In this document: piece after piece, positions 43,501-59,556 of the stretch
Numbering within the stretch: the first letter of the stretch is position 1
Layout of the letters: every line of letters starts with the position of its first letter
Origin: Mangrovibacterium sp.
GTDB taxonomy: Bacteria; Bacteroidota; Bacteroidia; Bacteroidales; Prolixibacteraceae
Reading direction: 5' to 3'
Assembly (NCBI GenBank): GCA_050178015.1
Contig: JBFXGM010000012.1
Span: forward strand, 31,967 to 95,966
Length of the DNA: 64,000 nt
The notes under the pieces: generated by a model
The model's input: only the letters and a program-made list of their open reading frames with translations
Databases searched by the model: none
Told to the model about the DNA's origin: nothing
Made by a program: the position numbers and the translations under genes

Positions 43501-43894
43501 GCTGTTGCTGAACCTGGCGTACCGCATTTTTTTCGGTGATCACCACATTCTTGCCCACAAATTCAAATTCATATCCATTAGGGATCAACACTTGCTGGAG
43601 AATGTTTTCGACAGTGGCATTGGTAACCGACAGAGTGATATTCCGACGGTCGGTCAACAAATTACTGGGGACTAAAAAACCTATATTCATTTGCTTTTCA
43701 ATCACCTCGAACACTTCAGTCAAGCTGGCATTCTGGAACGACAGGGATAGTTTTGCCGATTGGGAACTCACGGTTTTTGCGTTTGTCACAAACGCAGAGA
43801 CCAACATCAGGAATAAGATTAATCGCATCATAAGACCGAGTTTTTTCAAGTAATAACGGGCTAGAAACCCGCTGGATACAGATTTTTTTTTCAT
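40580..43894 (-). CDS. susC: SusC/RagA TonB-dependent transporter with N-terminal STN signalling domain (cassette 1)
   Basis: STN domain, CarboxypepD_reg-like domain, plug NDPLYVIDG, DIESIDILKDASATAIYGSRGANGVI, C-terminal F. Confidence 0.95.
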   Translation of the reverse strand: MKKKSVSSGFLARYYLKKLGLMMRLILFLMLVSAFVTNAKTVSSQSAKLSLSFQNASLTEVFEVIEKQMNIGFLVPSNLLTDRRNITLSVTNATVENILQQVLIPNGYEFEFVGKNVVITEKNAVRQVQQQQTVSGKVTDATGFPLPGVTVVVKGTTIGTITDSEGRYNLTNVPGDGTLVFSFVGMKLQENFVAGKTTIDVVLEEETIGLDEVVAIGYGVVKKRDVTGAMSSIKSEDFNLAITAAPEQLIQGKIAGVDIVQSSGRPGATSTVRIRGTSSISAGNDPLYVIDGIPMQFNSANLYVNVSGESGTSPFSSEGSNPLSTLNPADIESIDILKDASATAIYGSRGANGVILITTKSKKEFGESISYDTYFGLSSIRKKMDFLTADEYRDYAEDNSYPYPDEGANTDWQDAIFRSALSQNHNLAFGGGSANSNYRASMGYSSQEGIILSSKLEKYTTRLNANHKAFDGKLNIAVNLTYAKIDNDDVPVSSNVANEGGNILKDALRWAPTLPVYNADGSYYQLGELRVNPVSWKEVTDESHTDNFIGSASFSYKIIDPLSVSVNVGHTDEAMERYIHIPSTHPVAAAEKGRASISKLKNYSSTMETNLNYAKDFNENTSFSALVGYSFYRYVTQNTFTLANKFVSDATTWNLMQSGNILSNTSYKSANRLSSVYGRMNLKLKDRYLFTFTLRNDGSSRFGDNYRWGLFPSGAFAWNIADEPFFNNTKVTNLKLRLGFGVTGNQEIPNNLYREQLTVSGSSVYVLGGVAIPSVLPSNYANPDLKWEETTQLNLGLDWELLDGRFSGTIDLYKKNTNDLLLQFSTVAPSVVNSQWANVGEVENKGFEFALNGTLISKNDFQWKASLNFARNVNEVISLSNSQFSREVIDTAPASGLLNHDGSAQIIKPGLPIGTFYGPKFLGLDENGMEILMDEDGVAGPDDVVIGNANPDFTFGFSSSVFWKRFDASVSFRGVVGNDIFNNTAAEFSYTKPTPGVNVLKYAVESGVSHEQGAQYSSRWIEDGSYLRLDNLSVGYTFNTNKVSFLSKARVYVSGQNLFVISNYSGFDPEVRTNTNRGGTAPIGIDYLVYPRPQVFMLGANITF

Positions 43895-43980
43895 AAGTTT
43901 GTACTGTTATTATTATTACTATTTGGGATTGGTAGTCCCTTATATTCGCGGGCAATATTGGTAGTATTGCCCGTTTTTTA
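43894..43980 (+). ncRNA. Putative antisense sRNA unit 1 (DonS-like): promoter plus ~70-nt RNA plus terminator
   Basis: TAAGTTTG at 43894-43901 overlaps the susC ATG; hairpin CGGGCAATA/TATTGCCCG (43949-43973) then T6 ending at the fecR stop. Confidence 0.65.
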
Positions 43981-44973
43981 TTCCAAATAAATCAGATCCG
44001 GCTCGGGGAAACGTTCAAGTCGTTCCACCTTCATCGGGATCGAAATTTTCAACATGGTAATCACATCTCCTATCGAAGTTTCATAGTGAAAAGTCCCGGA
44101 AAACCGGAAATTGTCCACCAACACCTGATTTTTGTAAATGAATTTCACATGGTAAATTTCCTCCAGCCTCCGGGTAATCTCGCCCAGGGTGGCGTTGCGG
44201 AAGATTACTTTCCCATCTTTCCATGCCGTATATAAGTCAGTATTGACCTGGGTCACCTTCACCTTACTGGTTTCGGAATTCAGTTCCAGCATCTGATCAG
44301 GCTCGAGCAGGTATTTCTCTCCGGCTCGGGTTGTAAACTCCACTTTCCCTTCCACCAATGTTGTTTGGGTAATTGCAGAAAGTTGCTTTGCACACACATT
44401 AAAGCTAGTTCCCAGCACCTTAATTTCTGCCTCACGGGTAAGTACGGTAAACGGGCTGTTAGCATCGCGGGTGACCTCGAAGTAAGCCTCGCCATCCAGG
44501 GTGACCTGCCGGTGTTTTTTGTTGAAACGCGAATCGTATTGCAGGTTTGTTCCCGGGCGAAGGTACACCAGGGTTTGGTCGGGCAAGGTAACCAGCGAAT
44601 TATTCAGCCGGTTGGCCGATACGCTGAATACTTCGCCTTCCGGATTCATCGTTCCTTGGTAATAAGCGCGGGCTCCCCACCAGCCAACATTCAACAAGAT
44701 GATAATAGCCGCGGCGTAACGTAAAAATGCTTTCATGTTTAATCTCCTGGCTTTTCCAACCGTCTGCCGTTCATGGATCCGGTTCCAGGTGTCTTCCAGT
44801 TTGATGCCGGGCTGCTTTTGTTCCAGCTGTCCGGTCCACAGCCAGATTTTCAGGTAATCGGTAAGTGTTTGCTTGTTGGGCGCTTCTGCCATCCAGTCAT
44901 CCAGTTCCCTGAGTTCATCGGCACTGGCCTTTTGATGGAAGTAGCGGTTTATGAGTTGTTCAATGCGGTTCAT
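43978..44973 (-). CDS. FecR family anti-sigma factor (cassette 1)
   Basis: VTLPDQTLVYL, VTLDGEAYFEV, IKVLGTSFNV, WKDG; start set at MNRIEQ. Confidence 0.92.
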   Translation of the reverse strand: MNRIEQLINRYFHQKASADELRELDDWMAEAPNKQTLTDYLKIWLWTGQLEQKQPGIKLEDTWNRIHERQTVGKARRLNMKAFLRYAAAIIILLNVGWWGARAYYQGTMNPEGEVFSVSANRLNNSLVTLPDQTLVYLRPGTNLQYDSRFNKKHRQVTLDGEAYFEVTRDANSPFTVLTREAEIKVLGTSFNVCAKQLSAITQTTLVEGKVEFTTRAGEKYLLEPDQMLELNSETSKVKVTQVNTDLYTAWKDGKVIFRNATLGEITRRLEEIYHVKFIYKNQVLVDNFRFSGTFHYETSIGDVITMLKISIPMKVERLERFPEPDLIYLE

Positions 44974-44990
44974 GTTATCCGTGTTTGTGC

Positions 44991-45022
44991 ATAAAAACAC
45001 ACAAACCGAACAAAACCCTATA
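44991..45022 (-). promoter_or_regulatory. Putative ECF-sigma promoter upstream of fecR1
   Basis: ATAGG-N18-GTTTTTAT on the minus strand; same geometry as elements before fecR2 and fecR3. Confidence 0.35.
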
Positions 45023-45045
45023 TCCAAGTTGAAAAAAAAATGAAA

Positions 45046-45645
45046 TCACATAAAAGAAAGCAAGACCGAACGAACCAACAGGCTCTTGCCGGACATCTTT
45101 TCTCCGTCCAGATAAGGCGCCAAGTCTTCCCGCAATTTCCTGAGCGCCCGGGTGATATTCGCCTCAACAGCTTTCACCGAGATGGCCAACTTATCAGCAA
45201 TTTCCTTGTTCGTCAGGTCTTCGAACCGGCTCAGGCTGAATACTTCGCGACACTGGGGAGGCAAATTTGAAATCGACGTTTGGATTTTTTCGGATAGTTC
45301 GTGAAACAGCATGACATCCTCGCCGGTTTCGCTCAGTAAACGGTAATTAATGGAGGCCAACAAATGATCGGGCTCAGCAGTCATAGCCGACATTTTCTTC
45401 CGGTCGCGCAGCAGGTTCAGGCAGCGGTTACGGATCACGATGAACAGGTAATTCTTCACCTCCGCCTCCGATTCGAGGTTAACATCTCCTTCCCACAACT
45501 TAATAAAGGCCTCCTGTACAACCTGTTGCGCATCATCCTGCCGGTGCAAAAAATGGAACGCAACCACATAAAAGGCATGAAAATGCCTGTTATACATTGT
45601 CTCAAAGGCTTTTTTTCGAATCATCCGGGCTTGACTGACAACCAT
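45046..45645 (-). CDS. ECF RNA polymerase sigma-70 factor (cassette 1)
   Basis: DAQQVVQEAFIKLW, LPPQCREVFSLSR, NKEIADKLAISVKAVE; promoter TAGCTTTG at 45665-45672. Confidence 0.92.
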   Translation of the reverse strand: MVVSQARMIRKKAFETMYNRHFHAFYVVAFHFLHRQDDAQQVVQEAFIKLWEGDVNLESEAEVKNYLFIVIRNRCLNLLRDRKKMSAMTAEPDHLLASINYRLLSETGEDVMLFHELSEKIQTSISNLPPQCREVFSLSRFEDLTNKEIADKLAISVKAVEANITRALRKLREDLAPYLDGEKMSGKSLLVRSVLLSFM

Positions 45646-45865
45646 TTTTTGGATCTATTACCGGCAAAGCTATGAAAAATATCAAAGTCAACAGCGTGCA
45701 CATAAACCCAATGCCATTCAATCTTGAAACGATGAATTCTAAAAAAATAAAGTCTTCAGGAAGTGGCTGCACCTTTCCCTTTGCCCTGTTTTTACCATCT
45801 TGATAAAAATCCTCTTTTCGGGACTGCCCCGCTAGCTCTCCCTGATTTGTCCGGACCAACTTCAG

Positions 45866-45932
45866 ATCTTCTGTGTATCTTCTGTATATCTTCTGTGTAT
45901 CTTCTGTATTCAAATACACAGAATAGATACAG
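45866..45932. repeat. 11-bp tandem repeat ATCTTCTGT(G/A)T x4 followed by inverted partial copies
   Basis: Units at 45866, 45877, 45888, 45899 alternate G/A (22-bp higher-order repeat); ATACACAGAA and ATACAG downstream are reverse complements of the unit. Confidence 0.85.
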
Positions 45933-46053
45933 TATAAACATTGAATAAACGACTTGGATATGGAGCAGGTATGAGCCAACTAGCAGGAAGAATATTGGGA
46001 AAAAAATTTCAGGGAGGGAGGGCCAATATGCATCGAATCATCCAGCCACTCCT

Positions 46054-47046
46054 CTAATTGGTTTCAACGATTTCAGTCATAAAATCAACCATATAATTTA
46101 CCGTTTCATCCACCCAGGGATGAAATAACCAAAACGGGTGGATTTGCACATCAAATTTGTGCAATTCGTGGTAAATCCCCCAGCGCTCCATCATCGACAT
46201 CATTTCGTACTGACCGGCCGTAAAACGTGGAAAGCCACTATTCAGAAACAGCACCGGGACCGAATTTTCATTCAGCCAGAAAATCGGTGAAGCTTCTTTC
46301 CAGCGGTCGGGACGGTTGTAAAAGTCGCCTTCGAGCCATTGCACATCGGGCGAGTCGGGCCGGCGATCCAAGCTCAATGACAGTGGGGCCATAAAATCCA
46401 GTACACCATCAACATCAATTACCGCCTGCACCGCACTCGATTGGTCGTTGTTGCCCATGCTGCCTTCAAACTGCTCAACACCATTCGTCATGCCCACCAA
46501 CGCAGCCAACTGTCCGCCTGCCGAACAGCCCGAAATGGCAATAAAATCGGGATCAATGTTGAATTGATCAGCATTGGTCCGCAGCCAACGAATGGCCGCT
46601 TTGATATTATGAACGGCTGCCGGGTATTTGGCTTCGAGCGACAACTGGTATTCCACCGCCACCGTAACGAAACCCTGCCGGGCAATCATCTGGGCCATGG
46701 GCACCTGCAACGATTTGTCGCCGGCACGCCAGCCCCCGCCGTGAACCAATACCAGTGCCGGATATTTACCTGCCTTTTCGGGACGAAACAAATCGACATG
46801 CAAATCGCGCGGACCAAACGGGGTTTCGGGCAAATGGGCATACACCAAATCGCGCTCGGCAATCACGCCCGCCGGAACACTGTCCTTCGCAGGAACAGCT
46901 TGGGGATAGTTGTTTTTTATTTGGCGGTGTACCCGCGGGACATTGAAGGTGGTGTCGGTCGGGATAGTGGTACCTTGTATGAACTGGGCGTTGACGCCCG
47001 AATAAAAACAAATTGCGATAAGCAAGCTGAAAAAATGTACTTTCAT
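46054..47046 (-). CDS. Exported alpha/beta hydrolase (putative pectin/RG acetyl esterase)
   Basis: LVHGGGW, SGCSAGG, DVDG, HPFWLFHPW; signal peptide from MKVHFF; promoter TAATTTTG at 47083-47090. Confidence 0.82.
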   Translation of the reverse strand: MKVHFFSLLIAICFYSGVNAQFIQGTTIPTDTTFNVPRVHRQIKNNYPQAVPAKDSVPAGVIAERDLVYAHLPETPFGPRDLHVDLFRPEKAGKYPALVLVHGGGWRAGDKSLQVPMAQMIARQGFVTVAVEYQLSLEAKYPAAVHNIKAAIRWLRTNADQFNIDPDFIAISGCSAGGQLAALVGMTNGVEQFEGSMGNNDQSSAVQAVIDVDGVLDFMAPLSLSLDRRPDSPDVQWLEGDFYNRPDRWKEASPIFWLNENSVPVLFLNSGFPRFTAGQYEMMSMMERWGIYHELHKFDVQIHPFWLFHPWVDETVNYMVDFMTEIVETN

Positions 47047-47151
47047 GGGTTTCGATTGATTCGTCAGGTTAAACTTGAGTGTCAAAATTAGAGGTTATAA
47101 ATTTTGAAGCGGGGTAAAAATCACCGCAATGCCGGGGGTGAATTATCAAAT

Positions 47152-47191
47152 AAAACAGAGGGCCACTTATTACAAGACAGCCCTCCGTTTT
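47152..47191 (-). terminator. Bidirectional terminator after susD2
   Basis: AAAAC-a-GAGGGC / GCCCTC-c-GTTTT. Confidence 0.65.
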
Positions 47192-47201
47192 ATGAATTGA
47201 A

Positions 47202-48752
47202 TTAATTTGAATATCCCGGATTTTGATCCAAGTTTGGGTTGTTTGTTATTTGAATGGCGGGGATTGGATAAAGACCTCTCCATCCATCTGCTATCGGATC
47301 TTCGACCTGTTGTTTATAAAACCAGGTACTTGTAAAATAAGTTCCAAAACGGATCATGTCAGACCGACGTTTTCCTTCCCAAATAAATTCGCGGGCTCGT
47401 TCCTTGTCAATGTCTTCTAATGTCAAACTTGTTAAGTCAGCACAATTGCTTCTTTTCCGAACCTGATTAACCAGGCCTAATGCAATAGCGGCGTCCTGCC
47501 CCAGGCGGGTCAGGGCCTCGGCTTTCATCAGCAAAACGTTCGCATAGCGATCAACGACATAGTCATTATTCGCGTTGTAGCTTGTAAAGGTGGCACCGAC
47601 CGGCGAATACTTCAACACTTTATAACCTTCATTATCAGCAATTGCCATACGGGTAGGCTCAACCAAGGTGATTAAATTCAATTGAACGCCTTTAGAGTCA
47701 ACAAGTGGTGTTACCCCATCTAAGTAGAATTGCGGTCCATATTCCAATAACTTCAGCCGGTCATCCCCTTCTTCATAGCGTTCCAGGGCCGTATCATCAA
47801 AGCAATACCCGTTTGCAGGGCCGAAGCCTAAGCCATATTTTTTCTGGTCGAGGGCGGGCTGGGCATACAAGATAAACTGGTTACCGCCCACCCCTTTGGC
47901 CGGGTCAACTGAAATGGCCGTAATCACTTCCGAATTATTCTCGTTAGTAGCCAGGAAACAATCTCCGACACTTGGCTGCAACGCAAAGGCGCCAGTGTTA
48001 ATAACATTGTTGCACATCGTAACGCATTCGCTATATTGCTCGGTCCCCGAATAAACTTTAGCATTCAAATAGACTTCAGCCAATGCTGTATAGACAGATT
48101 CTTTTGTCAAACGAGGGTAATACGAAGCCCGTTGTGCCTGAGTGAACGTTGTGACAGATGGAAGTTCGGCGGCAGCTGCATTAAATTCGTCAACGACAAA
48201 TTGATATACTTCGGCACGCGAATTTGTGCTGGGAAGATTGGTTGCTTCAACTCTGGCACCGGTAAAAACAGGCACGTTGCCCCACCAATCCATGGCCCGA
48301 TAATATCCAAAAGCTCTCAAAGCACGCACTTCAGCAATCATTGCCTTGAAGTCATCGGCATTCGGTGACGATTCCAAACTTGCCAAAACAGCATTTGCCG
48401 CTCCAATTTCCTGAAAAATAGTGGCCCATGCGGTTACCATTCGCCCGTTGCTTGGAGTACATTTGTGAGTCATTACCTCATCAACACCCTGATCATACCA
48501 GCCACCACTTGCCTTGCCCGGGCAGAAGAATTCATCCGTTCCGTACTCGGTGAAACGCCAACCATCGCCACCAGCTGAATGGAAGTTGCCGAAAAGGCTA
48601 TATACACCGACCACTGAAGAAAGAGCTTCCGTTTCATTCTGATAGAAAGTCGTTGGCGAGAGTTTGCCGTAAGTGACTTCATCCAGATCTGTACATGAAG
48701 TGTAAAACATGCCCGCACAAACCAAGGCTGTTAATATTTTATTAGTTTTCAT
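47202..48752 (-). CDS. susD: SusD/RagB family lipoprotein (cassette 2)
   Basis: Lipobox YTS-C; EVRALRAFGYY, RYANVLLMKAEA, ERAREFIWEGKRRSDMIRFG, NPNLDQNPGY. Confidence 0.93.
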   Translation of the reverse strand: MKTNKILTALVCAGMFYTSCTDLDEVTYGKLSPTTFYQNETEALSSVVGVYSLFGNFHSAGGDGWRFTEYGTDEFFCPGKASGGWYDQGVDEVMTHKCTPSNGRMVTAWATIFQEIGAANAVLASLESSPNADDFKAMIAEVRALRAFGYYRAMDWWGNVPVFTGARVEATNLPSTNSRAEVYQFVVDEFNAAAAELPSVTTFTQAQRASYYPRLTKESVYTALAEVYLNAKVYSGTEQYSECVTMCNNVINTGAFALQPSVGDCFLATNENNSEVITAISVDPAKGVGGNQFILYAQPALDQKKYGLGFGPANGYCFDDTALERYEEGDDRLKLLEYGPQFYLDGVTPLVDSKGVQLNLITLVEPTRMAIADNEGYKVLKYSPVGATFTSYNANNDYVVDRYANVLLMKAEALTRLGQDAAIALGLVNQVRKRSNCADLTSLTLEDIDKERAREFIWEGKRRSDMIRFGTYFTSTWFYKQQVEDPIADGWRGLYPIPAIQITNNPNLDQNPGYSN

Positions 48753-48766
48753 TTTTCAATAATTGT

Positions 48767-51700
48767 TTAGAATGACACATTAATTCCAAGAGTATATGTT
48801 CTTGCTTTGGGATAACTCAAATAATCGACGCCCAGAGGTGCTGTTCCGGTACTTGATATCTCAGAGTTCACTTCCGGGTCGAGTCCGGAGTATCCGGTCA
48901 AAACAAACAGGTTCTGTCCGGATACATAAATTCTTGCATTTGACAGGAAAGTGTTCGTTGTATTGAAATTATAGCCTAAAGTCAGGTTATCCAGCCGCAG
49001 GAATGATCCATCTTCGATAAAGCGTGATGAATAGACTTTTGCCTGGCTACGACTTACACCACTTGTGACCGCTTCACGAAATACATTACGTCCCGGCAAA
49101 TTGCTCAGGTAGGCCTGATTGTTACGCGTTCCATTGTAGATGTCGTTGCCTACAATTCCGTGGAGATTTACGGCCAGCGACCAATTTTTGTAGCTAAAAT
49201 TGGATCCCAAACCAAAACTCAAATCGGGTTGTGCGCAACCAATAACTTCACTGGCGCCATCATTGGCATATTGTTCTAATCCATTGGCATCGAAACCGAT
49301 AAATCGTTTGCCGTAGAATGTCCCCAAAGGTTGTCCAGGCGTAATTAATTGAGCATAAGTTCCCGACAAACCTTGTCCTTGAGCAGGAGCGGTCTGCATA
49401 TCCTTACCGATCCATTTGTCGTTACTCAAGCTAAGTACCTTATTCGCGTTGTGGCTAACGTTGACATTAGCAGACCACTTGACCTTTTCGGTCCGAATCA
49501 AATCAGCATTAAAGGTTAATTCGACTCCTGAATTGCGAACTGCACCAACATTTGCAATTTGTTTTGAAATATAGGACGGAGAGGGAACGTCGATGGAGAG
49601 CAACAGGTCGGAAGTCTTTTTGTAGTACCAGTCTAGGCTACCCTGAACGCGGCCTTTAAAAACCGTAAAGTCGAGACCTAAATCGGTCTGGGCAGTTTCT
49701 TCCCATTTCAAATCCGGGTTAGCATACTGCGAGGGCATAACGATTGTGACTTTATTACCACCGACAATATAACCACTACTGCTAGCACTGAGCGTACTTA
49801 ATGCATTGTAGTTTCCAATTTCCTGACTACCGGTTACGCCATAACTGGCGCGGAATTTCAGATCGGAAACAAAATTGCTACTATAGAATTTTTCCTTTGA
49901 AATACGCCATGAAAAAGCAGCCGACGGGAATAGACCCCATTTGTGAGCACTACCAAAGCGGCTCGAACCATCGCGACGAAGCGTTGCTGTGAACAGGTAC
50001 CTGTCATCAAAATTATAATTGATGCGACCATACATCGAAATCAGTTTGTTGGACTGAGCGTAGCTTGTCGGAATTTCAATTGAAGTCGCTGCCTGAATGC
50101 TGTACCACTTGAATACATCTGAAAGAAAACCTGATGCACTTTGACGACTGCCCTCGTCGAAAAAGTATTGATAGGAATATCCCGCCATGGCATCAACCCC
50201 ATGTTTCCCGAACTGCTCGTTGTATTTCAAAATCGTCTCGAGCAACTTGTTATAGTCGTCCAATTTCTGCATACTCACATACCCATTATTGCCATTTCCG
50301 AGCAAATTGCTTTTTGAAATGTATGAATTACGGTCAAGCCGGTTGACATTATAGCCGCCATTGACCTGGAAAGTAAGCGGTTCGATGAAATTATACGAAG
50401 CACTGATGTTTCCTAGAAACTTGGTACTTTTCCGCTCGTCGAGCAGGTCGGTTGTGTACGAAACCGGGTTAACACGATAAGGCGGTACATTGTAATAAGC
50501 TCCGTTTTCATCGAAAACCGGATAGGTCGGATTAAATACGTAAGCTTCATAAAGAATGCTACTTCCCATTTCGCTGCCAACCGTATTTGACACAGGAGCC
50601 TGGTTGGTAGTTTGTTGACCGTAACTCATGTTCACATCGAATTTCAATTTGCCGTCAAGTTCGGTATGAGTAAGATTAATACGGCTGTTAAAGTTCTTCA
50701 CGTCAGAAGCTTTTATAATGCCTTGCTGATCGCTGTAACCTAACGAAACGCGGTAGTTGCTTTTTTCAACACCACCTGTCAACGAGAGAAAATTGCTTGT
50801 CGCCATCGCCGTACGCTCAATACGGTCTTGCCAATTGGCATTATCACCTTTATCGTCTATTGTTAATCCAAGAGTATTTACAATGGATCGGTATTCGTCA
50901 CCTGTTAGCACATCGAGCTGTTTTGACGCATTTGAGAACCCGGTATTAAAAGCGTAATCAAGTTGCGTTCTGCCTGCTTTGCCCCGTTTAGTGGTTATCA
51001 TGATGACACCATTTGCACCCCGTGAACCGTAAATCGCAGTAGCTGAAGCATCCTTCAGAATATTTATCGATTCAATATCATTGGGGTTAATACTTGACAA
51101 GGGGTCTACTGCTTCCTGGTCGAAATAGTCATATGTGCTGCTCAATTTGGTCGAGCTCACTCCAGCAGAAGTTGAAATTGGAACGCCGTCGATAACATAA
51201 AGAGGTTCGTTGGAAGCAGTAATCGATGTACCACCCCGAACACGGATCGTGTTGGTACCCCCGGGTTTACCCGAATTCTGGCTAATACTGACACCGGAAA
51301 TCGACCCTTTCATAATCGCCTGAGGAGTTAAACCTGATCCTACCTGGAAGCGGTCACTACTTATAGAAGAAACTGAACCTGTCAAATCACTTTTTTTCAT
51401 GGTACCGTACCCAATAGCAACCACTTCTTCCAAGCCAATGGCTTCTTCTTTTAAAACCACATTGATCTGCCTTTGACCGGCCACCATCATCTCAACCGAC
51501 TGCATCCCCACAAACGAAAAGAGCAAAGTGGCATCAGCAGGGATATTGCTCAACGAGTATCTTCCTTCGAAGTCAGAAACCGTCCCGTTGGTTGTACCTT
51601 TCAGGAGGATGGTCACCCCGGGAAGCGGCGCTCCCGACGAGTCGGTCACTTTTCCGGAAACCGGTATTTGCTGTTGGGCAGATGACAAATTTGCAGCCGC

Positions 51701-52069
51701 ACTGCCCGATAAAATAATCTGACGCCCGTCAATCTTATAACTGATTCCTGTCTCTTCAAACAGATCGTCCAGCAAAACGGCGATTTTTACGTCCTTCACC
51801 TGCACATCCACTTTCCGGTTCACGTCAACCATACTCCGGCTGTACAGAAAATAAAAATCCGTTTGCTCTTCAATGGACTGAAGCACCGTTTCCACGGAAG
51901 CATTTTTTACATTCATCGAAATGTTCGCGTTTTGTGCCTGGCTTTTGCCGGCAAAACTGTGGATTACTCCCAGTAAAATGATCAAGCAAGTGAGCTTCAT
52001 GTACCGTAGCATTTTAATTATTCGGGGATACAACACGCCCTGAATAATTGGGTTACACTTTTTTTTCAT
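48767..52069 (-). CDS. susC: SusC/RagA TonB-dependent transporter with STN domain (cassette 2)
   Basis: STN, plug NEPLYVIDG, KDASATAIYGSRGANGVI, C-terminal F. Confidence 0.95.
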   Translation of the reverse strand: MKKKCNPIIQGVLYPRIIKMLRYMKLTCLIILLGVIHSFAGKSQAQNANISMNVKNASVETVLQSIEEQTDFYFLYSRSMVDVNRKVDVQVKDVKIAVLLDDLFEETGISYKIDGRQIILSGSAAANLSSAQQQIPVSGKVTDSSGAPLPGVTILLKGTTNGTVSDFEGRYSLSNIPADATLLFSFVGMQSVEMMVAGQRQINVVLKEEAIGLEEVVAIGYGTMKKSDLTGSVSSISSDRFQVGSGLTPQAIMKGSISGVSISQNSGKPGGTNTIRVRGGTSITASNEPLYVIDGVPISTSAGVSSTKLSSTYDYFDQEAVDPLSSINPNDIESINILKDASATAIYGSRGANGVIMITTKRGKAGRTQLDYAFNTGFSNASKQLDVLTGDEYRSIVNTLGLTIDDKGDNANWQDRIERTAMATSNFLSLTGGVEKSNYRVSLGYSDQQGIIKASDVKNFNSRINLTHTELDGKLKFDVNMSYGQQTTNQAPVSNTVGSEMGSSILYEAYVFNPTYPVFDENGAYYNVPPYRVNPVSYTTDLLDERKSTKFLGNISASYNFIEPLTFQVNGGYNVNRLDRNSYISKSNLLGNGNNGYVSMQKLDDYNKLLETILKYNEQFGKHGVDAMAGYSYQYFFDEGSRQSASGFLSDVFKWYSIQAATSIEIPTSYAQSNKLISMYGRINYNFDDRYLFTATLRRDGSSRFGSAHKWGLFPSAAFSWRISKEKFYSSNFVSDLKFRASYGVTGSQEIGNYNALSTLSASSSGYIVGGNKVTIVMPSQYANPDLKWEETAQTDLGLDFTVFKGRVQGSLDWYYKKTSDLLLSIDVPSPSYISKQIANVGAVRNSGVELTFNADLIRTEKVKWSANVNVSHNANKVLSLSNDKWIGKDMQTAPAQGQGLSGTYAQLITPGQPLGTFYGKRFIGFDANGLEQYANDGASEVIGCAQPDLSFGLGSNFSYKNWSLAVNLHGIVGNDIYNGTRNNQAYLSNLPGRNVFREAVTSGVSRSQAKVYSSRFIEDGSFLRLDNLTLGYNFNTTNTFLSNARIYVSGQNLFVLTGYSGLDPEVNSEISSTGTAPLGVDYLSYPKARTYTLGINVSF

Positions 52070-52149
52070 AAATTTGACTTGTTTTTATTTTTGAATAAAG
52101 CATGATAGGCCTGCCGTGAATGTGCAAGATTCCGACAGGCTTTTTTCTA
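52069..52149 (+). ncRNA. Putative antisense sRNA unit 2 (DonS-like)
   Basis: TAAATTTG at 52069-52076 overlaps the susC ATG; hairpin GCCTG..CG..GAAT / ATTC..CG..CAGGC (52109-52140) then T6 abutting the fecR stop. Confidence 0.6.
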
Positions 52150-53199
52150 ATTCCTCATAAACTGTACTTTTTGACGGATTTGTCCCTGTACTTTTTCTTC
52201 AACCAATTGATACCGGATGGGCAAGGCCTGAGAAATCAAATTCATACATTGATCTAGTTTTTCATTTTCCAGCGTACAGGTTAATTCCAGTGTGTTCAAT
52301 TCATGGTCGGTTATGACCATTTCCACATTATACCAACGGCTCAGCTTTTTGACAGCCAAATCCAGTCGTTCATTCTGAATCATCAATTTACCGTCAATCC
52401 AGGCTGCTGAATTGGTTGATTTTACTTCCTTCTTTTCCACTGAATTGGTTTTGGCGTCAAACTGCAACTGTTGCCCCGGATCCAGCTCAATATTTCCCGC
52501 CAGCCCTTCCAAATGAATTTTCCCCTCCAATAGGGTGGCTTCAAAGAATTTATCGGTTGAGTACGCATGAAGGTTAAATTGGGTGCCGGTGACCACGGTT
52601 GTCATCAGCGGATTTTCCACCACAAACGGATGCTTCGGATCGGATTTCACGTCGAAATAGGCTTCACCGTCCACAAACACAGTGCGGTTGGATGCGGTAA
52701 ACTGTTCGGGATATTTTAAAAGCGTGCCGTCATTCAGCCATACGTTAGTCCCGTCGGCCAGTGTCAGACTAGTCCGCGTGCCGGGCTTGGTGTATATTTC
52801 GCGCATGGCGAGTTCTCCCTCCGACAACCAACCGGTTGGTGAACTGAAATACAAATACGCAGTGAAAATTATTAACGGAATGATGAGAATGGCAGCGGCC
52901 CGGGCAAACAACAGGTACATCCGGCCAATCGCTTTTGTATTGGATGGTGAGGCTGTTGAACTGCCATGCTGCGTTTGAATTCGGGAGTGAACCCGGGAAA
53001 GCAATTGGTCGAAATCGGGTTTGCTTCCTGACAACTTAATTTGGGAGTTCGTCCAAATCTCACCCAATAACTGTCGAACCTGGGTTTCGTTTTTCGGGTC
53101 GATCAACCATTCCCGGATTTGCTCCGATTGCAACTGATCGGCTTTTCCTTCGAGGTAATTCTTTATATCATGCTGATTTAATTTCATCCGCCATTTCAT
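52147..53199 (-). CDS. FecR family anti-sigma factor (cassette 2)
   Basis: TM helix, LTLADGTNVWLN, VDGEAYFDV, GTQFNL, WIDG. Confidence 0.92.
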   Translation of the reverse strand: MKWRMKLNQHDIKNYLEGKADQLQSEQIREWLIDPKNETQVRQLLGEIWTNSQIKLSGSKPDFDQLLSRVHSRIQTQHGSSTASPSNTKAIGRMYLLFARAAAILIIPLIIFTAYLYFSSPTGWLSEGELAMREIYTKPGTRTSLTLADGTNVWLNDGTLLKYPEQFTASNRTVFVDGEAYFDVKSDPKHPFVVENPLMTTVVTGTQFNLHAYSTDKFFEATLLEGKIHLEGLAGNIELDPGQQLQFDAKTNSVEKKEVKSTNSAAWIDGKLMIQNERLDLAVKKLSRWYNVEMVITDHELNTLELTCTLENEKLDQCMNLISQALPIRYQLVEEKVQGQIRQKVQFMRN

Positions 53200-53205
53200 T
53201 TTCTC

Positions 53206-53238
53206 CTATACTACGAAACGAAGTGCCGGTTACCCCTA
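53206..53238 (-). promoter_or_regulatory. Putative ECF-sigma promoter upstream of fecR2
   Basis: AGGGG-N18-GTAGTAT on the minus strand, just before the fecR start. Confidence 0.4.
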
Positions 53239-53256
53239 GTCAACCCGAGATTTTTT

Positions 53257-53838
53257 TTACTGAAAAGTGATGAAATAAAAAAGCATGCCCAAAATCCCGC
53301 TCTGGCCAAGCTGTTCGCGTAAGGTTTTCAGCGCGGCAGAGATTTGGTTTTCAACTGTTTTCACCGATACGTTCAGTTGCGCTGCAATTTCTTTGTTGGA
53401 ATATCCCTGTTCCCGGCTCAGTTTAAAAATTTCCTTCCTCTTTTCGGGCAAGGTCTCGATAACCTGGTTTGCGAGCTCCTGAATATTGTTGAATTCAATC
53501 GTGTAATTGGTTTCGTTTGAAGAAAAGGAAGCCACATTTCCCCAAAGCTCCATTTTTCGTTTCTCTGATTTTTCTTTCCGAAGCCAGGAAATGGTTTCGG
53601 AATAAGTAATCGAAAAAACGAATGACTTGAAAGAAAGGTGTTCCTCGATCCGGGCCCTCTTCTCCCATATTTTCAGGAAAACCAGCTGCGTAATTTCTTC
53701 GGCAATGTAGGGTTCCCGGGTGATACTGAGGGCGAAGGCATACAAACTCTCGGCATATTTTTTAAACAAGGCATTGAAGGCAGAAAAATCATCCTGTTTC
53801 AAAAGTTCAACATATGGCCGGTCGTTATTGGTTTGCAT
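53257..53838 (-). CDS. ECF RNA polymerase sigma-70 factor (cassette 2)
   Basis: AEEITQLVFLKIWE, LPEKRKEIFKLSR, NKEIAAQLNVSVKTVENQI; promoter TAGCTTTG at 53861-53868. Confidence 0.92.
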   Translation of the reverse strand: MQTNNDRPYVELLKQDDFSAFNALFKKYAESLYAFALSITREPYIAEEITQLVFLKIWEKRARIEEHLSFKSFVFSITYSETISWLRKEKSEKRKMELWGNVASFSSNETNYTIEFNNIQELANQVIETLPEKRKEIFKLSREQGYSNKEIAAQLNVSVKTVENQISAALKTLREQLGQSGILGMLFYFITFQ

Positions 53839-53965
53839 ACCATTTTATTCGGAAGAAGAACAAAGCTAGGAAAATATTTCCACTCTCAATTCCCATTGTC
53901 AGGATCTTGATTCTTCCTGCAACAGCAAACCTAATGGAAATGGTCAAGCCGGATACGCATAAGAA

Positions 53966-53993
53966 AATACCCCGAAGTTTCCTCCGGGGTATT
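53966..53993. terminator. Terminator-like hairpin after susD3
   Basis: AATACCCCG / CGGGGTATT 9-bp stem. Confidence 0.65.
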
Positions 53994-54039
53994 AAAAAAA
54001 TATGACAAATCTAGAATCACAAAAATACTCTGTATCAGA

Positions 54040-56064
54040 TTAGTTATAACCATCATTTTGCCAGAATCCTTGTCCTGGTGAAGCACTGAGGTTAGTAACC
54101 GCATCCATTTGGGCTTGTGGAATTGGACGCAACAAATGATAATCTTTCACATTTGCAGCCCCCTGCGCATTGTATGCTTTTACACGACTCACAAGTGTTT
54201 TGGTCCGTTTCAGGTCGAACCAGCGCTGCTGTTCGCCGCAAAGTTCAATGGCGCGTTCTTCCAGAATGGTTTCCAAAGTTGCTACGCCGCTGAGGGAATT
54301 ATCCATTCCCGGCTTGGCACGTTCCTGACGCAATTCGTTAATAGTTGCCATCGCTGCTGCTCCACTTTCGGTATTCAACTGACATTCAGCTTCAATCAGG
54401 TACATTTCGGCCAAACGAATAACAATTGCATCGCGCGGCGAAATATCATGCGTTGGATAGGCCGGATCGTACACATTGTTCAAGAATTTTTTGATACCCG
54501 GGTAGGAGCACCATCCGCCAATTTTATATGTATTGAAACGATCGTCGCCATATACATCAGATACTGGTTTGGCAGCTTCGGTTGGCAAGGCTTTGGACAG
54601 ATCTGTCGATGTATAAATTGGCACATCACCACCTGTCATAAACTGAATGCGGTACCTGTCTTTTGCCCAAGCCTGCATAGCCTGACCTTCGGGCGAATTT
54701 CCATCCAAACCACAATAATAAATCGCCGTATCGGCAATCATTGGGTATTTTTTAGCGCTTCCTTCCAATCCGGGAGCAATAGTATAAGCATCCAGCAAAG
54801 TAGCTTCGGTACGTTGATCTGTTGCCCGATGTTGCTCCAACAACTGCCACAAGTACATAGAAGGCAAATAGCGGGTAAAACCACGGCTGTAGGGCGAATA
54901 TTTTTCTGCCACGTAAACCTTCTCTCCGGTTTTGGTATTGGTAATGTACTGGGTACTTTCAGAAGACAAAGCGCGAACGAAAATTTCCTTACCGTTACCA
55001 CCCAAATCAGAAGCACCGTTGTTCCATAATCCAACGAACTGGAGCAACATGGCGCTTCCGCCGCGACTATAACCGGTACGGGTTATCAGAGAGTTATAAT
55101 CCAACTTAGTACCAGACTTATTTGTTTTGTAACGGCGAGGGATACAATTTACCGGTGAAGCAATATCCGATGAATAGGTTACACCAAAAATAGCTTCCTG
55201 ATTATCCGCATAGTTCTCATTATTCATCGACCAAACATCTTCATAGTTTGAATAGAAAGATGCAATACCACTACCGATCACAGCTTGTGCTTCAGTTTGG
55301 GCCAGCGAGTACAGATTTTTACCGGAATAGGCCGAATTGGTTGAAATACTGGATTCTCCCAACCAGGATGCAGCATAAAGAAGAACGCGGGCTTTGAAAG
55401 CACGGGCAGCCCAGTAATTGGCGCGTCCGTCAGCCTTGGTTGTATAACCGGCATCTTCAAACGCCTTAATCGACAAGTCCAGGTCGGCTAAAATATTGCT
55501 GTACACTTCTTCTTCAGGCATACGCCCCGGTTCGGTGGTGATCGAAGTTACCGGTTCACTGTTGTAAGGAATCGGTCCCCAGATGTTCACCATATGAAAA
55601 TAGTAGAACGCCCGCAAAAAATAAGCCTCTCCCATGTACTGGGTTTTAACAGTCTCATTGATTGCCGTATTTTCCGGGATGTATTTCAGGGCATTGTTAC
55701 ACACATCCGTGGCGGCATAAAACATTTCCCAATAGTGGTCCAAACTGGCATTATCGCTGGTGTTATTGTCCAAACTAACCGGAGTGATGTTATAAGAAGT
55801 CAACGACTTTTGCTTATTGTCGTAACCATAATAAAACAAGTCTGTTCCCATTTCAGACAAGCCCAAGCCAGCTTCCTTTCCATACCAACCACGGGCAAAT
55901 GAGTAACATGAAGCAACCAATCCTTCAATCCCGGTTTTGGATGAATAAGTCAGGTCGGCAGTTTCACCGGTTTTATTGTCTTCTTCCAGAAAGTCCTGAC
56001 AGGAAGTAAAACTTCCCAAAAGTGCCGTTCCTGCTAAAAGGTATATAAATAATTTCTTTTTCAT
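54040..56064 (-). CDS. susD: SusD/RagB family lipoprotein, long form (cassette 3)
   Basis: Lipobox FTS-C; GEAYFLRAFYYF, IRLAEMYLIEAEC, ERAIELCGEQQRWFDLKRT. Confidence 0.92.
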   Translation of the reverse strand: MKKKLFIYLLAGTALLGSFTSCQDFLEEDNKTGETADLTYSSKTGIEGLVASCYSFARGWYGKEAGLGLSEMGTDLFYYGYDNKQKSLTSYNITPVSLDNNTSDNASLDHYWEMFYAATDVCNNALKYIPENTAINETVKTQYMGEAYFLRAFYYFHMVNIWGPIPYNSEPVTSITTEPGRMPEEEVYSNILADLDLSIKAFEDAGYTTKADGRANYWAARAFKARVLLYAASWLGESSISTNSAYSGKNLYSLAQTEAQAVIGSGIASFYSNYEDVWSMNNENYADNQEAIFGVTYSSDIASPVNCIPRRYKTNKSGTKLDYNSLITRTGYSRGGSAMLLQFVGLWNNGASDLGGNGKEIFVRALSSESTQYITNTKTGEKVYVAEKYSPYSRGFTRYLPSMYLWQLLEQHRATDQRTEATLLDAYTIAPGLEGSAKKYPMIADTAIYYCGLDGNSPEGQAMQAWAKDRYRIQFMTGGDVPIYTSTDLSKALPTEAAKPVSDVYGDDRFNTYKIGGWCSYPGIKKFLNNVYDPAYPTHDISPRDAIVIRLAEMYLIEAECQLNTESGAAAMATINELRQERAKPGMDNSLSGVATLETILEERAIELCGEQQRWFDLKRTKTLVSRVKAYNAQGAANVKDYHLLRPIPQAQMDAVTNLSASPGQGFWQNDGYN

Positions 56065-56085
56065 TTGAATATGCATTTTGTTAGG

Positions 56086-59000
56086 TTAAAATTCAATATT
56101 AGCTCCAAACACTACTTGTTTCGCTAACGGGAAGCTGACTGAACCACCACGTTCCGGGTCGTAATTATCAATACTACTGAATGTCAGGAAGTTCTTCAAT
56201 GAACCATAAACTTTCACCGATCCCAAACCAACCTGACCGATTAAGCTTTTTGGAAGATTATAGGCCAGAGTGATATCCTTTACTTTCACATAGTTAGCTT
56301 TCTCATAGCGCAAAGCGCCGCCGTAATTGGTATGAGGTGTACTCACTGAACCCGGGTTCGGAAATTTTCCGCCTGGATTGTTCACGGTCCAGTAATCCAA
56401 ATCAGCCCAGTTGGCCGATTCAAAGTTCAGCTGGGTGTTCAAGTCATAAGCAATATAACCACCTGTGCGGGCAAAAAGCAGAACGGATAATGAAAAATCT
56501 TTGTAACTGATGGAGTTGTTCATACCCAAAATATGCTTTGGACTCCGGTTATAAACAATTTTATCTTCATCATCAATGGCCCCGTCATCATTCTGATCAA
56601 CCACCTTAATGGTTCCGGGGGTACCATAGCTCGAAATATAATTGGCAGTTTCTCCCGGGTGACGGGCTTCCCATGCGGCTTTATACTCGGCAAATTCACC
56701 TACATTCCAGTTGCCATCGGCTTTGTAGTCGTAAAATGCGCTTACCGGTTCACCCACGATGTAGGCAATATTTCCGTTGATGTCTTTATCAACACCTTCG
56801 TATAGTTTGTCCACTTCATCTTTAAAGGTCGCATAAGACCAGTTGATATCCCATTTAAAATCGTTTGACCGGGCAACAGAAGTATTTAAAGCAATTTCCA
56901 ACCCCTGGCCTTTTGTTTCACCAATATTGGCGATAACAGTCGGGAACACGGAAGAAGCCGGGGCCGAACGATAGAGCAACAAATCAGACGTGTTACTGAT
57001 GAAGTAATCAATGCTACCAGAAACACGGTTCTCCCAGATTCCAAAATCCAAACCGATGTTTATGGCGTTGGTTGTTTCCCATTTCAATTCCTTATTTCCC
57101 AACTGATCGGGTATATTACCGGCAATATCCTTTGCTCCCAGATAATAATATACCGGGTACGAACTCAATACTTGCAGGGTTTGGTATGGGTCAACAGCAG
57201 CATTACCCGAGATCCCCCAACTGGTGCGCAATTTCAAATTATCCAGCCAATTTACATCCATCAGGAAAGGTTCTTCGCTCATACGCCAGGCTACAGCGGT
57301 TGACGGGAAGTACCCCCATTTATTACCTTCGGCCAGGGTAGAGGAACCGTCGGCACGAACCGAAGCCGTCAACAAATATTTATCCTTGAATTTGTAGTTT
57401 ACACGGCTGAAATACGACATGATCGCCTGCTTCACAAAGCTGGTCCTGGTGGTGGCCGTACTTATTTTCGACAAATCGTAGAAGGCGCTTGTGTAGTAAT
57501 GTTCAGCGCCAGCATCGCCATACGTGGAGGTATTTTCACTAACACTCTGGTTCATACTGTGCCCTAACAGCAAAGTCACTCCATGATCTGTTCCACCAAA
57601 ATCGGTGTTGTACGTGAGCGTGTTCTCCCAGGTATATTTTGTGTAAGCATTCCAGGTAGAAGAGATATACGTTGTTCCCGGAGATTGATGGCGGGCAACA
57701 CTCTTAAAGTCCTGATACAGACCGTCACGGGCATTGGAACGGTCAACGGCGAAGGTTGACTTCAACACCATGTCTTTCAATGGTTTTACTTCCAGATAAC
57801 CGTTGGCAAATACACGGGTTGTTTCGATGTTTCGCTGATAATTGCCTGGCAATTCATCCATCAAGGGGTTCACGTGTGCAGCATAACGCGGGTTCGGGTT
57901 CTCGTTAATCGTACCATCCGAAAGGTAGGGATGCGTGATGGAGGTCATTTTCAGCGATTGACCGAAAACACTGGAATTGCGGGAGTCATGGCTTTTATAG
58001 GTCAACAACGCATTCATCCCCACTTTGACGTGGTCGCTTATAACATGGTCCACTACGGTTTTCACGTTGTAACGATCCAGGGCGTCATCTTTCATTAAGC
58101 CTTCTTCGAACATGGTCCCCAGCGAAAGGTTAAAGTTTGTTTTCTCGCTACCACCCGAAACGGCCAGCTCATAGTTCTGGGTTAACCCGCTTTGCAGGAT
58201 GATATCCAGCCAGTCTGTATAAGAACCATTGTTGTAAATTTCAAGTTCGGTTGTTCCGTCATCGAGGCTTTCAGTCAGGATATCATTGATGGTCAGATTA
58301 CTTCCACCCCAGTTCCCCGAAGCCACATCAGCCTGATAATTAGCCTTGTCAATCAATCGCTGAACCTCTTTTTTGCCGTACATTACCTTGGGAACATTGG
58401 TTGGCGAGTTTGATGAAACAAACGTATTCAGGTTAATTTTCGTTTTACCAGCTTTACCGCGTTTGGTGGTAATGATGATAACACCGTTAGCACCTTTTGT
58501 ACCGTAAATAGCAGTAGAAGAGGCATCTTTCAGCACATCCATCGATTCGATATCCGATGGGTTGATGTCCAGGGTTGAGCCGTATTCGATACCATCCACC
58601 AGGATGAGCGGGCTGTTTGAAGCAGAAATAGAACGGTTGCCACGCAACGTGATGCTCAGCCCGGCGCCAGCCTGACCACTACTCTGCTGAATATCCAAAC
58701 CCGGAACCTGTGCCTGCATGGCCTGCATGGCATTACTGGAGGAAGTACGGGCAATATCTTCGGCTTTCACCGAAGCAACCGAACCGGTTAAATCCTTTTT
58801 CTTGACAACACCATAACCAACTGCAACAACCTCCTCAATACCAATGGTTTCTTCTTCCAGATAAACCGAAATGTTGGTTTTACCGGCTACAGGAACTTCC
58901 TGAGATTGCATCCCCACAAACGAGAATACCAATACACCATCAGCCGGAATGTTGGACAAGGAGTAATTTCCGTCGAAATCGGTGATAGTCCCGTTGGTGG

Positions 59001-59472
59001 TCCCTTTCAAAACCACAGTAACACCGGGAAGCGGGGCACCGGCCGCGTCTGTCACCTTTCCGGTAACAGTTTGTGGCTGAGAAGCCATCATCACATTTTC
59101 AACAGCCTGTTGTTTGTGGATGATGATCAACTTGTTATTGATCGTATAGGTTAAACCAGTTCCGTCCATCAAAAAGTTCAGAACTTCTTCAACCGTCTGG
59201 TCTTGCAGGTTGATGTTCATCACTTTCGACAAATCCACTTCTTGTGCATTGTAAAAGAAGGAAAATTCGGACTGGTCTTCAATGCGGCCCAGCACCTGTT
59301 CGATCGACAGGTTTTGACCGATGAGGCTCAATTTCGTGTTTTGCGAATAGGTTGAAGCTGATACTTGCATCAGCGCCACCAACATAAACAAACAGATAAG
59401 TTTCATAATTCGAATGATTTTGGGAAGACGGAGCCGTCGGGCATAATCCTCCTCATTACTCTTTTTTTTCAT
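56086..59472 (-). CDS. susC: SusC/RagA TonB-dependent transporter with STN domain (cassette 3)
   Basis: STN, plug SPLILVDG, KDASSTAIYGTKGANGVI, C-terminal F; start set at MKKK. Confidence 0.95.
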   Translation of the reverse strand: MKKKSNEEDYARRLRLPKIIRIMKLICLFMLVALMQVSASTYSQNTKLSLIGQNLSIEQVLGRIEDQSEFSFFYNAQEVDLSKVMNINLQDQTVEEVLNFLMDGTGLTYTINNKLIIIHKQQAVENVMMASQPQTVTGKVTDAAGAPLPGVTVVLKGTTNGTITDFDGNYSLSNIPADGVLVFSFVGMQSQEVPVAGKTNISVYLEEETIGIEEVVAVGYGVVKKKDLTGSVASVKAEDIARTSSSNAMQAMQAQVPGLDIQQSSGQAGAGLSITLRGNRSISASNSPLILVDGIEYGSTLDINPSDIESMDVLKDASSTAIYGTKGANGVIIITTKRGKAGKTKINLNTFVSSNSPTNVPKVMYGKKEVQRLIDKANYQADVASGNWGGSNLTINDILTESLDDGTTELEIYNNGSYTDWLDIILQSGLTQNYELAVSGGSEKTNFNLSLGTMFEEGLMKDDALDRYNVKTVVDHVISDHVKVGMNALLTYKSHDSRNSSVFGQSLKMTSITHPYLSDGTINENPNPRYAAHVNPLMDELPGNYQRNIETTRVFANGYLEVKPLKDMVLKSTFAVDRSNARDGLYQDFKSVARHQSPGTTYISSTWNAYTKYTWENTLTYNTDFGGTDHGVTLLLGHSMNQSVSENTSTYGDAGAEHYYTSAFYDLSKISTATTRTSFVKQAIMSYFSRVNYKFKDKYLLTASVRADGSSTLAEGNKWGYFPSTAVAWRMSEEPFLMDVNWLDNLKLRTSWGISGNAAVDPYQTLQVLSSYPVYYYLGAKDIAGNIPDQLGNKELKWETTNAINIGLDFGIWENRVSGSIDYFISNTSDLLLYRSAPASSVFPTVIANIGETKGQGLEIALNTSVARSNDFKWDINWSYATFKDEVDKLYEGVDKDINGNIAYIVGEPVSAFYDYKADGNWNVGEFAEYKAAWEARHPGETANYISSYGTPGTIKVVDQNDDGAIDDEDKIVYNRSPKHILGMNNSISYKDFSLSVLLFARTGGYIAYDLNTQLNFESANWADLDYWTVNNPGGKFPNPGSVSTPHTNYGGALRYEKANYVKVKDITLAYNLPKSLIGQVGLGSVKVYGSLKNFLTFSSIDNYDPERGGSVSFPLAKQVVFGANIEF

Positions 59473-59556
59473 AGATTTGTACTGTTTAGACAATTAATAA
59501 ATGATTGTTTTTCGTTTAAGGCGGGATGTTGTGGCGACAACCCGCCTTTCTTTTTA
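59472..59556 (+). ncRNA. Putative antisense sRNA unit 3 (DonS-like)
   Basis: TAGATTTG at 59472-59479 overlaps the susC ATG; hairpin AAGGCGGG..TTGT / ACAA-CCCGCCTT (59518-59548) then a T-rich tail overlapping the fecR stop. Confidence 0.65.

Follow-up and report, generated by a model that had tools for sequence, protein, structure and literature searches.

Putative DonS-type antisense RNA genes in the fecR–susC spacers of an environmental Mangrovibacterium

The stretch of DNA considered here (the window) comprises 64,000 nucleotides of a Mangrovibacterium sp. genome (assembly GCA_050178015.1, contig JBFXGM010000012.1, positions 31,967 to 95,966). On the minus strand of the region of interest lie three tandem cassettes (units 1-3), each encoding an extracytoplasmic function (ECF) sigma factor, a FecR anti-sigma factor, a SusC protein with an STN domain and a SusD protein; Pfam confirmed the identity of every member, including the STN-bearing SusC. 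We looked at the short spacers between fecR and susC and suggest that each of them probably holds, on the opposite strand, a gene for a cis-antisense RNA of the DonS type that would keep susC off by default. We infer both the production of these RNAs and the repression of susC from the DNA sequence. The design itself is already known from gut Bacteroides; what is new is that it occurs in an environmental host and beside a pectin locus, and that none of the genome's 26 ECF-linked susC genes lacks it. A first-pass annotation had proposed such a module at each of the three junctions, and the proposal finds support in six independent lines of evidence, namely the use of the same promoter box at tRNA genes, the base pattern of the box, the distribution of wobble pairs between the strands, covariation in the stems, the distance between terminator and box, and a similar layout in B. 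thetaiotaomicron.

The spacers are 83, 77 and 81 nt long in units 1, 2 and 3. Read on the plus strand, every spacer opens with CAT, the complement of the susC ATG, and the T of this triplet starts an exact Bacteroidota -7 box, TAnnTTTG. The predicted RNA that follows has a first hairpin and a terminator hairpin in each unit. The features, in window coordinates, are:

43892-43894, minus strand: susC1 start codon ATG
43894-43901, plus strand: predicted -7 promoter box of the unit 1 antisense RNA, TAAGTTTG (TAnnTTTG), its first T being the complement of the A of the susC1 ATG
43906-43979, plus strand: predicted antisense small RNA (sRNA) of unit 1, 74 nt, with the first stem-loop at 43920-43944, the terminator stem-loop at 43948-43974 and the T-tract at 43975-43979
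43978-43980, minus strand: fecR1 stop codon TAA, into which the antisense T-tract extends
52067-52069, minus strand: susC2 start codon ATG
52069-52076, plus strand: predicted -7 box of unit 2, TAAATTTG, overlapping the susC2 ATG, its first T being the complement of the A
52081-52146, plus strand: predicted antisense sRNA of unit 2, 66 nt, with the terminator stem-loop at 52107-52142, followed by a U tail that ends at 52146
52147-52149, minus strand: fecR2 stop codon
59470-59472, minus strand: susC3 start codon ATG
59472-59479, plus strand: predicted -7 box of unit 3, TAGATTTG, overlapping the susC3 ATG, its first T being the complement of the A
59484-59555, plus strand: predicted antisense sRNA of unit 3, 72 nt, with the first stem-loop at 59488-59510, the terminator stem-loop at 59518-59548, followed by a U-rich tail that ends at 59555
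59554-59556, minus strand: fecR3 stop codon

In unit 3, a TTG at 59493 taken from the mechanical list of open reading frames (ORFs) lies upstream and is not the conserved susC3 start. The boxes that the first-pass annotation had placed at 43894, 52069 and 59472, with the first T complementing the A of the ATG, are exact in position at all three junctions. The similar start region it saw in units 1 and 3 is the stretch TTTGTACTGTT, present at 43898-43908 and 59476-59486, and the strong hairpin with a plus-strand T-tail abuts the fecR stop codon in each of the three units. It had also predicted RNAs of 65-75 nt, antisense to the spacer and including the susC initiation region; the sizes hold (74, 66 and 72 nt), while the coverage of the start codon does not. 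Our predicted starts are the G five bases past the box (G 43906, G 52081 and G 59484), because differential RNA-seq (dRNA-seq) in Flavobacterium places this box at -12 to -5.

The box was examined over the whole genome (4.49 Mb), which contains 26 co-directional fecR–susC junctions and 15 SusC-like genes without FecR. The exact box, which reads CAAAnnTATG on the sense strand with its ATG as the start codon, is found at 22 of the 26 fecR-linked susC genes and at none of the 15 others (Fisher, 6e-8), the comparison that the first-pass annotation had put forward as a check. The same 10-mer has 215 matches in the genome, which is near the expectation from composition. The module is therefore specific to ECF-coupled susC genes. 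A position matrix of the 26 junctions gives CAT in 26, followed by A (24), two freer positions (A in 20 and in 15), T (25), T (25), T (24) and G (23), and the fifth base after the box is G in 17. A fixed TA and TTTG, with more freedom at the two bases between, is the pattern of a promoter consensus. The same TAnnTTTG is found within 80 nt upstream of 26 of the 46 tRNA genes in the sense direction and of 2 in the antisense direction, its end lying mostly 10-17 nt before the mature 5' end. Judging from these tRNA genes it is this organism's housekeeping promoter box, of the sigma-ABfr type, and at the junctions its activity is predicted. In three junctions of B. thetaiotaomicron (L177-L179) and one of another family (G047 L224), the box is intact though the ATG is mutated or opens a mere four-codon mini-ORF, which argues that the box is maintained as a promoter. 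Two of these junctions (L178 and L179, CAAATTTATGAATTTATAG) differ in layout: the ATG at the box begins an ORF of four codons, and the true start of susC is found ~60-90 nt further on; the antisense RNA would there start well upstream of the real start codon.

The terminators give a similar picture. An antisense terminator by strict criteria is found in 21 of the 26 spacers, compared with 7% of random 118-nt segments (p = 2e-20), and by relaxed criteria or RNAfold a hairpin with a T-rich tail is found on the antisense strand in all 26; in the sense direction, terminators are found in just three. Location of the antisense unit on the strand opposite to susC, within the spacer after fecR, is common to our three units and to all 26 junctions. 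The spacers range from 77 to 168 nt and the distance from the terminator to the fecR stop from 2 to 62 nt, yet the predicted RNAs keep to about 70-102 nt. A steady RNA length with a floating distance to the stop means that the terminator tracks the box, as it would in one transcription unit. A box with a strong terminator 45-125 nt downstream occurs at 51 places in the genome, and 17 of them (one third) are these junctions. This junction pattern is far beyond chance. In a phylum-wide count of an exact 16-mer pattern, our genome gave 22 matches against 0 in the control and other genomes at most 8; the first-listed matches elsewhere were mostly not fecR–susC junctions, and the pattern is a poor detector outside the lineage.

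Concerning the strand that folds, the minimum free energies of the plus and sense strands are -24.0 and -17.6 kcal/mol in unit 1, -15.8 and -16.5 in unit 2, and -24.2 and -17.2 in unit 3, with plus-strand z-scores of -4.1, -1.9 and -4.4, so that in units 1 and 3 the plus strand folds 6-7 kcal/mol better. A more telling measure comes from the wobble pairs. With a symmetric hairpin scoring, in which G·U and A·C are penalised equally, the 26 stems, read as antisense, have 32 G·U pairs and four A·C pairs, the latter corresponding to G·U on the sense strand (binomial, 2e-6). The orthologue alignments show the same bias, with 15-27 antisense against three sense G·U pairs in unit 3 and 14 against three in unit 2. 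This asymmetry indicates that the plus-strand transcript is what is selected to fold.

The spacers are also well conserved. In four relatives with orthologues of unit 1, FecR is 88, 67, 54 and 50% identical and the spacers are 99, 96, 76 and 87% identical, respectively. For units 2 and 3, twelve orthologues each (FecR 44-62% identical) retain the box, the first hairpin and the terminator, and double compensatory changes are found at five stem pairs in unit 2 and four in unit 3. The apical parts are fixed: unit 2 has GAAUGUGCAAGAUUC, slightly altered in some orthologues, and unit 3 has UGUUGUGGCGACA. A metagenomic contig represents a strain of ~93% identity; of the 48 differences counted over 688 nt, one is listed at 43764-44001, with four differences unlisted. 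This interval comprises the spacer together with the final fecR codons and codons 1-43 of susC. In the closest relative (G003), the fecR2 orthologue at L194 has an in-frame TGA and is possibly a pseudogene, and the antisense module downstream of it is intact. The unit 1 RNA carries ATTGGTAGT in both of its hairpin loops (43928-43936 and 43957-43965, plus strand), and both copies are retained in orthologues down to 50% FecR identity, with one relative altering the terminator loop only. The terminator hairpins of unrelated paralogues, in the 26 junctions and also in B. thetaiotaomicron (L166-L189), have in common the apex RTG-[y]TGC[r]A[a]-CAY, with basal stems that vary. Such an apex is not needed by a plain terminator and may be a recognition site.

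Other explanations of these spacers should be considered. One option is that the feature serves the sense strand only, the hairpin being a 5'-leader or intercistronic structure of the fecR–susC transcript (a stabiliser, a processing site or a protein-binding site) and CAAAnnTATGAAAAAA a special context for translation initiation, without any antisense RNA. In its favor, the hairpins fold on the minus strand too (z about -4), their apical loops are conserved across paralogues and orthologues beyond the need of a terminator, and the conserved CCTATG box described below, just upstream, could put a sense start right before the hairpin. However, the wobble pairs favor the antisense strand by 32 to 4, and a T-tract comes after the hairpin in 26 of 26 spacers when read as antisense, compared with 3 of 26 when read as sense. 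These two results contradict a role of the hairpins as sense-strand stabilisers only, which the first-pass annotation had named as an outcome that would speak against its proposal. The box, in addition, is conserved in the promoter-like pattern TA..TTTG and persists where the ATG is gone, and the T at -3 to -1 differs from the A-rich context upstream of the start codon that Bacteroidota ribosomes reportedly favor. Antisense RNAs have, moreover, been found experimentally at such loci in Bacteroides. We consider the sense-only explanation unlikely.

Another explanation is that the start region is the common target of a family of trans-acting sRNAs, such as FopS/GibS of B. thetaiotaomicron, whose seed would pair with CAAAUUUAUGAAAAA, and that there is no promoter. 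FopS/GibS are multicopy trans sRNAs of ~65-70 nt that repress susC translation by pairing beside the start codon (Nat Commun 2025;16:208). They resemble the RNAs predicted here in their single-stranded 5' end, terminator hairpin and canonical promoter, and FopS sRNAs repress several susC mRNAs in this way through a 5' end, GUGUUUUUCAUAG, that is an anti-start-codon sequence. The differences are that the FopS genes are mostly intergenic elsewhere and have this seed in common, whereas each RNA predicted here belongs to one locus and matches its own leader with perfect complementarity. The FopS/GibS 5' sequence has no copy in our genome (zero 19-mer matches, and two 12-mer matches in unrelated contexts), and an Rfam search of 38-64 kb of the window at a permissive threshold gave chance matches only and no sRNA family. 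A pairing target would not free two internal positions in the exact pattern TAnnTTTG, and the antisense terminators would be left unexplained, so we regard this explanation as very improbable. An equally small chance is given to elements acting at the DNA level, in which the inverted repeat is an operator or a part of the ECF promoter and the likeness of the spacers comes from the joint duplication of the cassettes. The 26 paralogous cassettes are clearly of common ancestry, and the candidate ECF promoter box adjoins the hairpin. Yet the stems change in sequence and keep their pairing, including via G·U, which is the signature of an RNA, unlike a protein-binding palindrome, and drift after duplication would not leave a spacer more conserved than the protein flanking it.

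Among known systems, the closest to the antisense RNA genes that we propose is DonS of B. fragilis, described as the prototype of a group of 78-128-nt cis-antisense RNAs that are divergent to susC homologues and lower their expression (Cao, Förstner, Vogel, Smith 2016, J Bacteriol 198:2410). Papers citing that work describe the same arrangement for an ECF-regulated polysaccharide utilization locus (PUL): a cis-antisense RNA, divergent to susC, is encoded after the anti-sigma gene and before the susC homologue, with its own housekeeping promoter and terminator and a length of the order of 100 nt, and is reported to repress its PUL. The differences are that our host is an environmental (landfill, wastewater and sediment) metagenome-assembled genome of the Bacteroidia, that the locus concerns rhamnogalacturonan and pectin and not host glycans, and that the module, known here from sequence alone, stands at all 26 ECF-linked susC genes. 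The link originally drawn between the DonS family and PULs for host-derived (mucosal or N-glycan) glycans fails here, since the unit 1 locus is a rhamnogalacturonan/pectin locus. We take the occurrence at a pectin locus to widen the range of the family, and do not count the link to host glycans among its defining traits.

In B. thetaiotaomicron, 10 and later 32 PUL-associated antisense RNAs of 76-140 nt were annotated, with the canonical promoter motif PM1, and several were confirmed by Northern blot; BTnc009, 077, 123, 136, 210 and 249 were designated 'type A', and BTnc055 and 252 were designated 'TSS overlaps start codon', that is, by the transcription start site (Ryan et al. 2020, 2024). 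For comparison we used 30 FecR loci from one B. thetaiotaomicron genome, found by a pattern scan. About 10 of ~24 junctions have CATAnnTTTG on the start codon together with an antisense terminator, and the elements stand in the same order as in our units: the fecR stop, an A-run, a GC hairpin with an RTG-loop-CAY apex, an AT-rich spacer and CAAAnnTATG. The B. thetaiotaomicron spacers differ in being longer (~120-260 nt) and in keeping the box on the ATG at only ~10 of the ~24 junctions. The primary sequence of these junctions and of our own is not alignable, and the Rfam search of the window gave no family. RNA-seq contigs of B. thetaiotaomicron cover a homologous junction, without strand or sharp ends. 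The layout was also found in 8-9 of 11 junctions sampled directly at FecR loci of other Bacteroidia families and, within the family to which the window belongs, in seven more genera. A more distant likeness is to convergent-promoter and cis-antisense control in general, such as transcriptional interference and the plasmid copy-number RNAs RNAI and CopA. The common traits are a short, structured antisense RNA fully complementary to a leader, with hairpin loops open to the first contact, and a promoter directed against the regulated transcript. In those cases the controlled genes serve replication or encode toxins, whereas the partner here is an outer-membrane transporter operon driven by an ECF sigma factor.

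Several points weigh against our reading of the spacers as antisense RNA genes. The predicted RNAs cover the susC leader from -12 upstream and leave out the start codon, and their 66-74 nt (about 70-102 nt genome-wide) lie at or under the low end of the 78-128 nt given for the DonS family. The box has at least one mismatch in four of the 26 junctions, it ends in TTTA, not TTTG, in several unit 2 orthologues, and no -33 TTTG is evident upstream of it in the 26-junction matrix, just a T-run from Lys codons. In unit 2 the plus strand folds no better than the sense strand and its z-score is just -1.9. Formation of the stems is possible in the sense mRNA too, which leaves room for a second, sense-strand role. 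The B. thetaiotaomicron junctions were likened to ours by layout. A match in length between predicted (82-128 nt) and published (76-140 nt) RNAs of that species, with five pairs within 2 nt, is at chance level for 12 predictions in a 47-nt range and was not counted as support. In addition, the organism has been met solely in metagenomic DNA runs; among the RNA runs searched for the window or its congener, none contained either.

If the spacers do encode such RNAs, a simple mechanism can be proposed. The housekeeping sigma factor would bind the -7 box TAnnTTTG, whose first two bases also belong to the susC start codon region, and transcription would begin at the conserved G five bases on (43906, 52081 and 59484), run across the whole susC leader and stop at the intrinsic terminator, with the U-tract reaching the fecR stop codon. 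The product of 66-74 nt would begin with a short single-stranded stretch, followed by a variable first hairpin and by the terminator hairpin with its conserved apex. As sense terminators are absent from 23 of the 26 spacers, basal transcription of the sigma and anti-sigma genes can read into susC. The antisense RNA would then pair with the susC leader from -12 upstream and lead to a block of translation, to decay, or to both, and the convergent polymerase on the start codon may interfere head-on with leaky sense transcription, until strong ECF-driven sense transcription overrides the antisense unit. The idea of the first-pass annotation, that the housekeeping polymerase competes with ECF read-through, is compatible with this proposed silencing.

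Another question is where the ECF-dependent sense promoter lies. At 11-50 nt upstream of the A-run and hairpin, the sense strand repeatedly carries the box (T/A)GCCTATG(A/T)A, either after the fecR stop or in the last fecR codons, and in the window two such boxes were placed:

59560-59565, minus strand: CCTATG box within the last fecR3 codons, a candidate part of an ECF-dependent susC promoter
52156-52161, minus strand: box of the CCTATG type

Boxes of this type are found at nine junctions of our own genome (o241, o3434, o526, o5629, o5663, o6973, o7026, o7107 and o9158) and at eight other loci (L007, L012, L041, L167, L169, L174, L189 and L230), and CTATG is present in 9 of 25 junctions compared with 0.67 expected from shuffles. 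TTAACC or TGAAC frequently stands in front of the box, which in many cases opens a mini-ORF of 1-4 codons (ATG TAG, ATG AAG TAA). The CCTATG-type box may be the ECF-dependent promoter of susC. A search for its -35 partner gave AAC-containing hexamers at inconsistent spacings of 10-20 nt, and no promoter model was fixed. For B. thetaiotaomicron, an ECF motif is described as not known (Ryan et al. 2020).

Unit 1 heads a locus with a rhamnogalacturonan lyase of the PcRGLX type, GH28, GH88/105 and a rhamnosidase-like protein, further members being an oligogalacturonate-lyase-like protein and esterases. This gene content agrees with the plant-pectin locus named in the first-pass annotation. The window DNA was matched in metagenomes from landfill, wastewater, sediment, freshwater, sludge and digesters, and the earlier description of a non-gut lineage holds for the habitat. 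Two further elements were seen between the genes. A long AT-rich inverted repeat of TATCTTCTGT-like repeats lies at 45868-45946, between the ECF1 gene and the upstream esterase gene, and yields spurious microRNA matches in Rfam. A strong intrinsic terminator with a 12-bp stem lies at 53966-53993 (minus strand), directly after susD3 and ahead of the ECF2 gene. Units 3 and 2 are separated by it in the sense direction, whereas the fecR–susC gaps are terminator-free. The ECF-linked SusC proteins begin with MKKK, followed by ~20 residues and a second Met that opens the hydrophobic core of the signal peptide, the extension being in frame in 25 of 26. The DNA of this N-terminal extension (43764-43894, 52000-52069 and 59400-59472 in the window, minus strand) is nearly invariant between strains and in all 26 genes usually contains a hairpin of 5-12 bp at codons 8-20. 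As an ECF-specific feature these hairpins were rejected, their mean z of -1.35 comparing with -0.35 for random ORF starts but with -1.13 for other susC genes.

So far, DonS-type RNAs have been described as a means by which gut Bacteroides control host-glycan loci. Based on the pectin locus, the 26 of 26 junctions and the other Bacteroidia families, it can be argued that antisense control is a basic part of the ECF/anti-sigma/SusC cassette. A still wider reading, which we put forward tentatively and hold to be rather doubtful as a whole, is that the module is an ancestral, class-wide and near-obligatory part of every ECF/anti-sigma-coupled SusC cassette in the Bacteroidia and not a gut adaptation, that it forms a convergent promoter pair in which an ECF promoter (CCTATG with an upstream AAC) lies just before the hairpin and the housekeeping promoter on the start codon, and that the apex RTG-yTGCrAa-CAY is a recognition site for a shared RNA-binding protein or for loop–loop contact. 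If this were true, the susC leader and the antisense RNA would be near-exact complements, the antisense terminator would also serve the mRNA as its 5' hairpin, and dozens of PULs would have one common off-switch or insulator. The rule of CAAAnnTATG at the start codon with an A-run and hairpin after fecR makes such genes predictable from DNA alone, and the wobble-pair comparison offers a cheap means to tell which strand a conserved hairpin serves. Antisense control is worth annotating and weighing whenever ECF-coupled PULs are studied or engineered.

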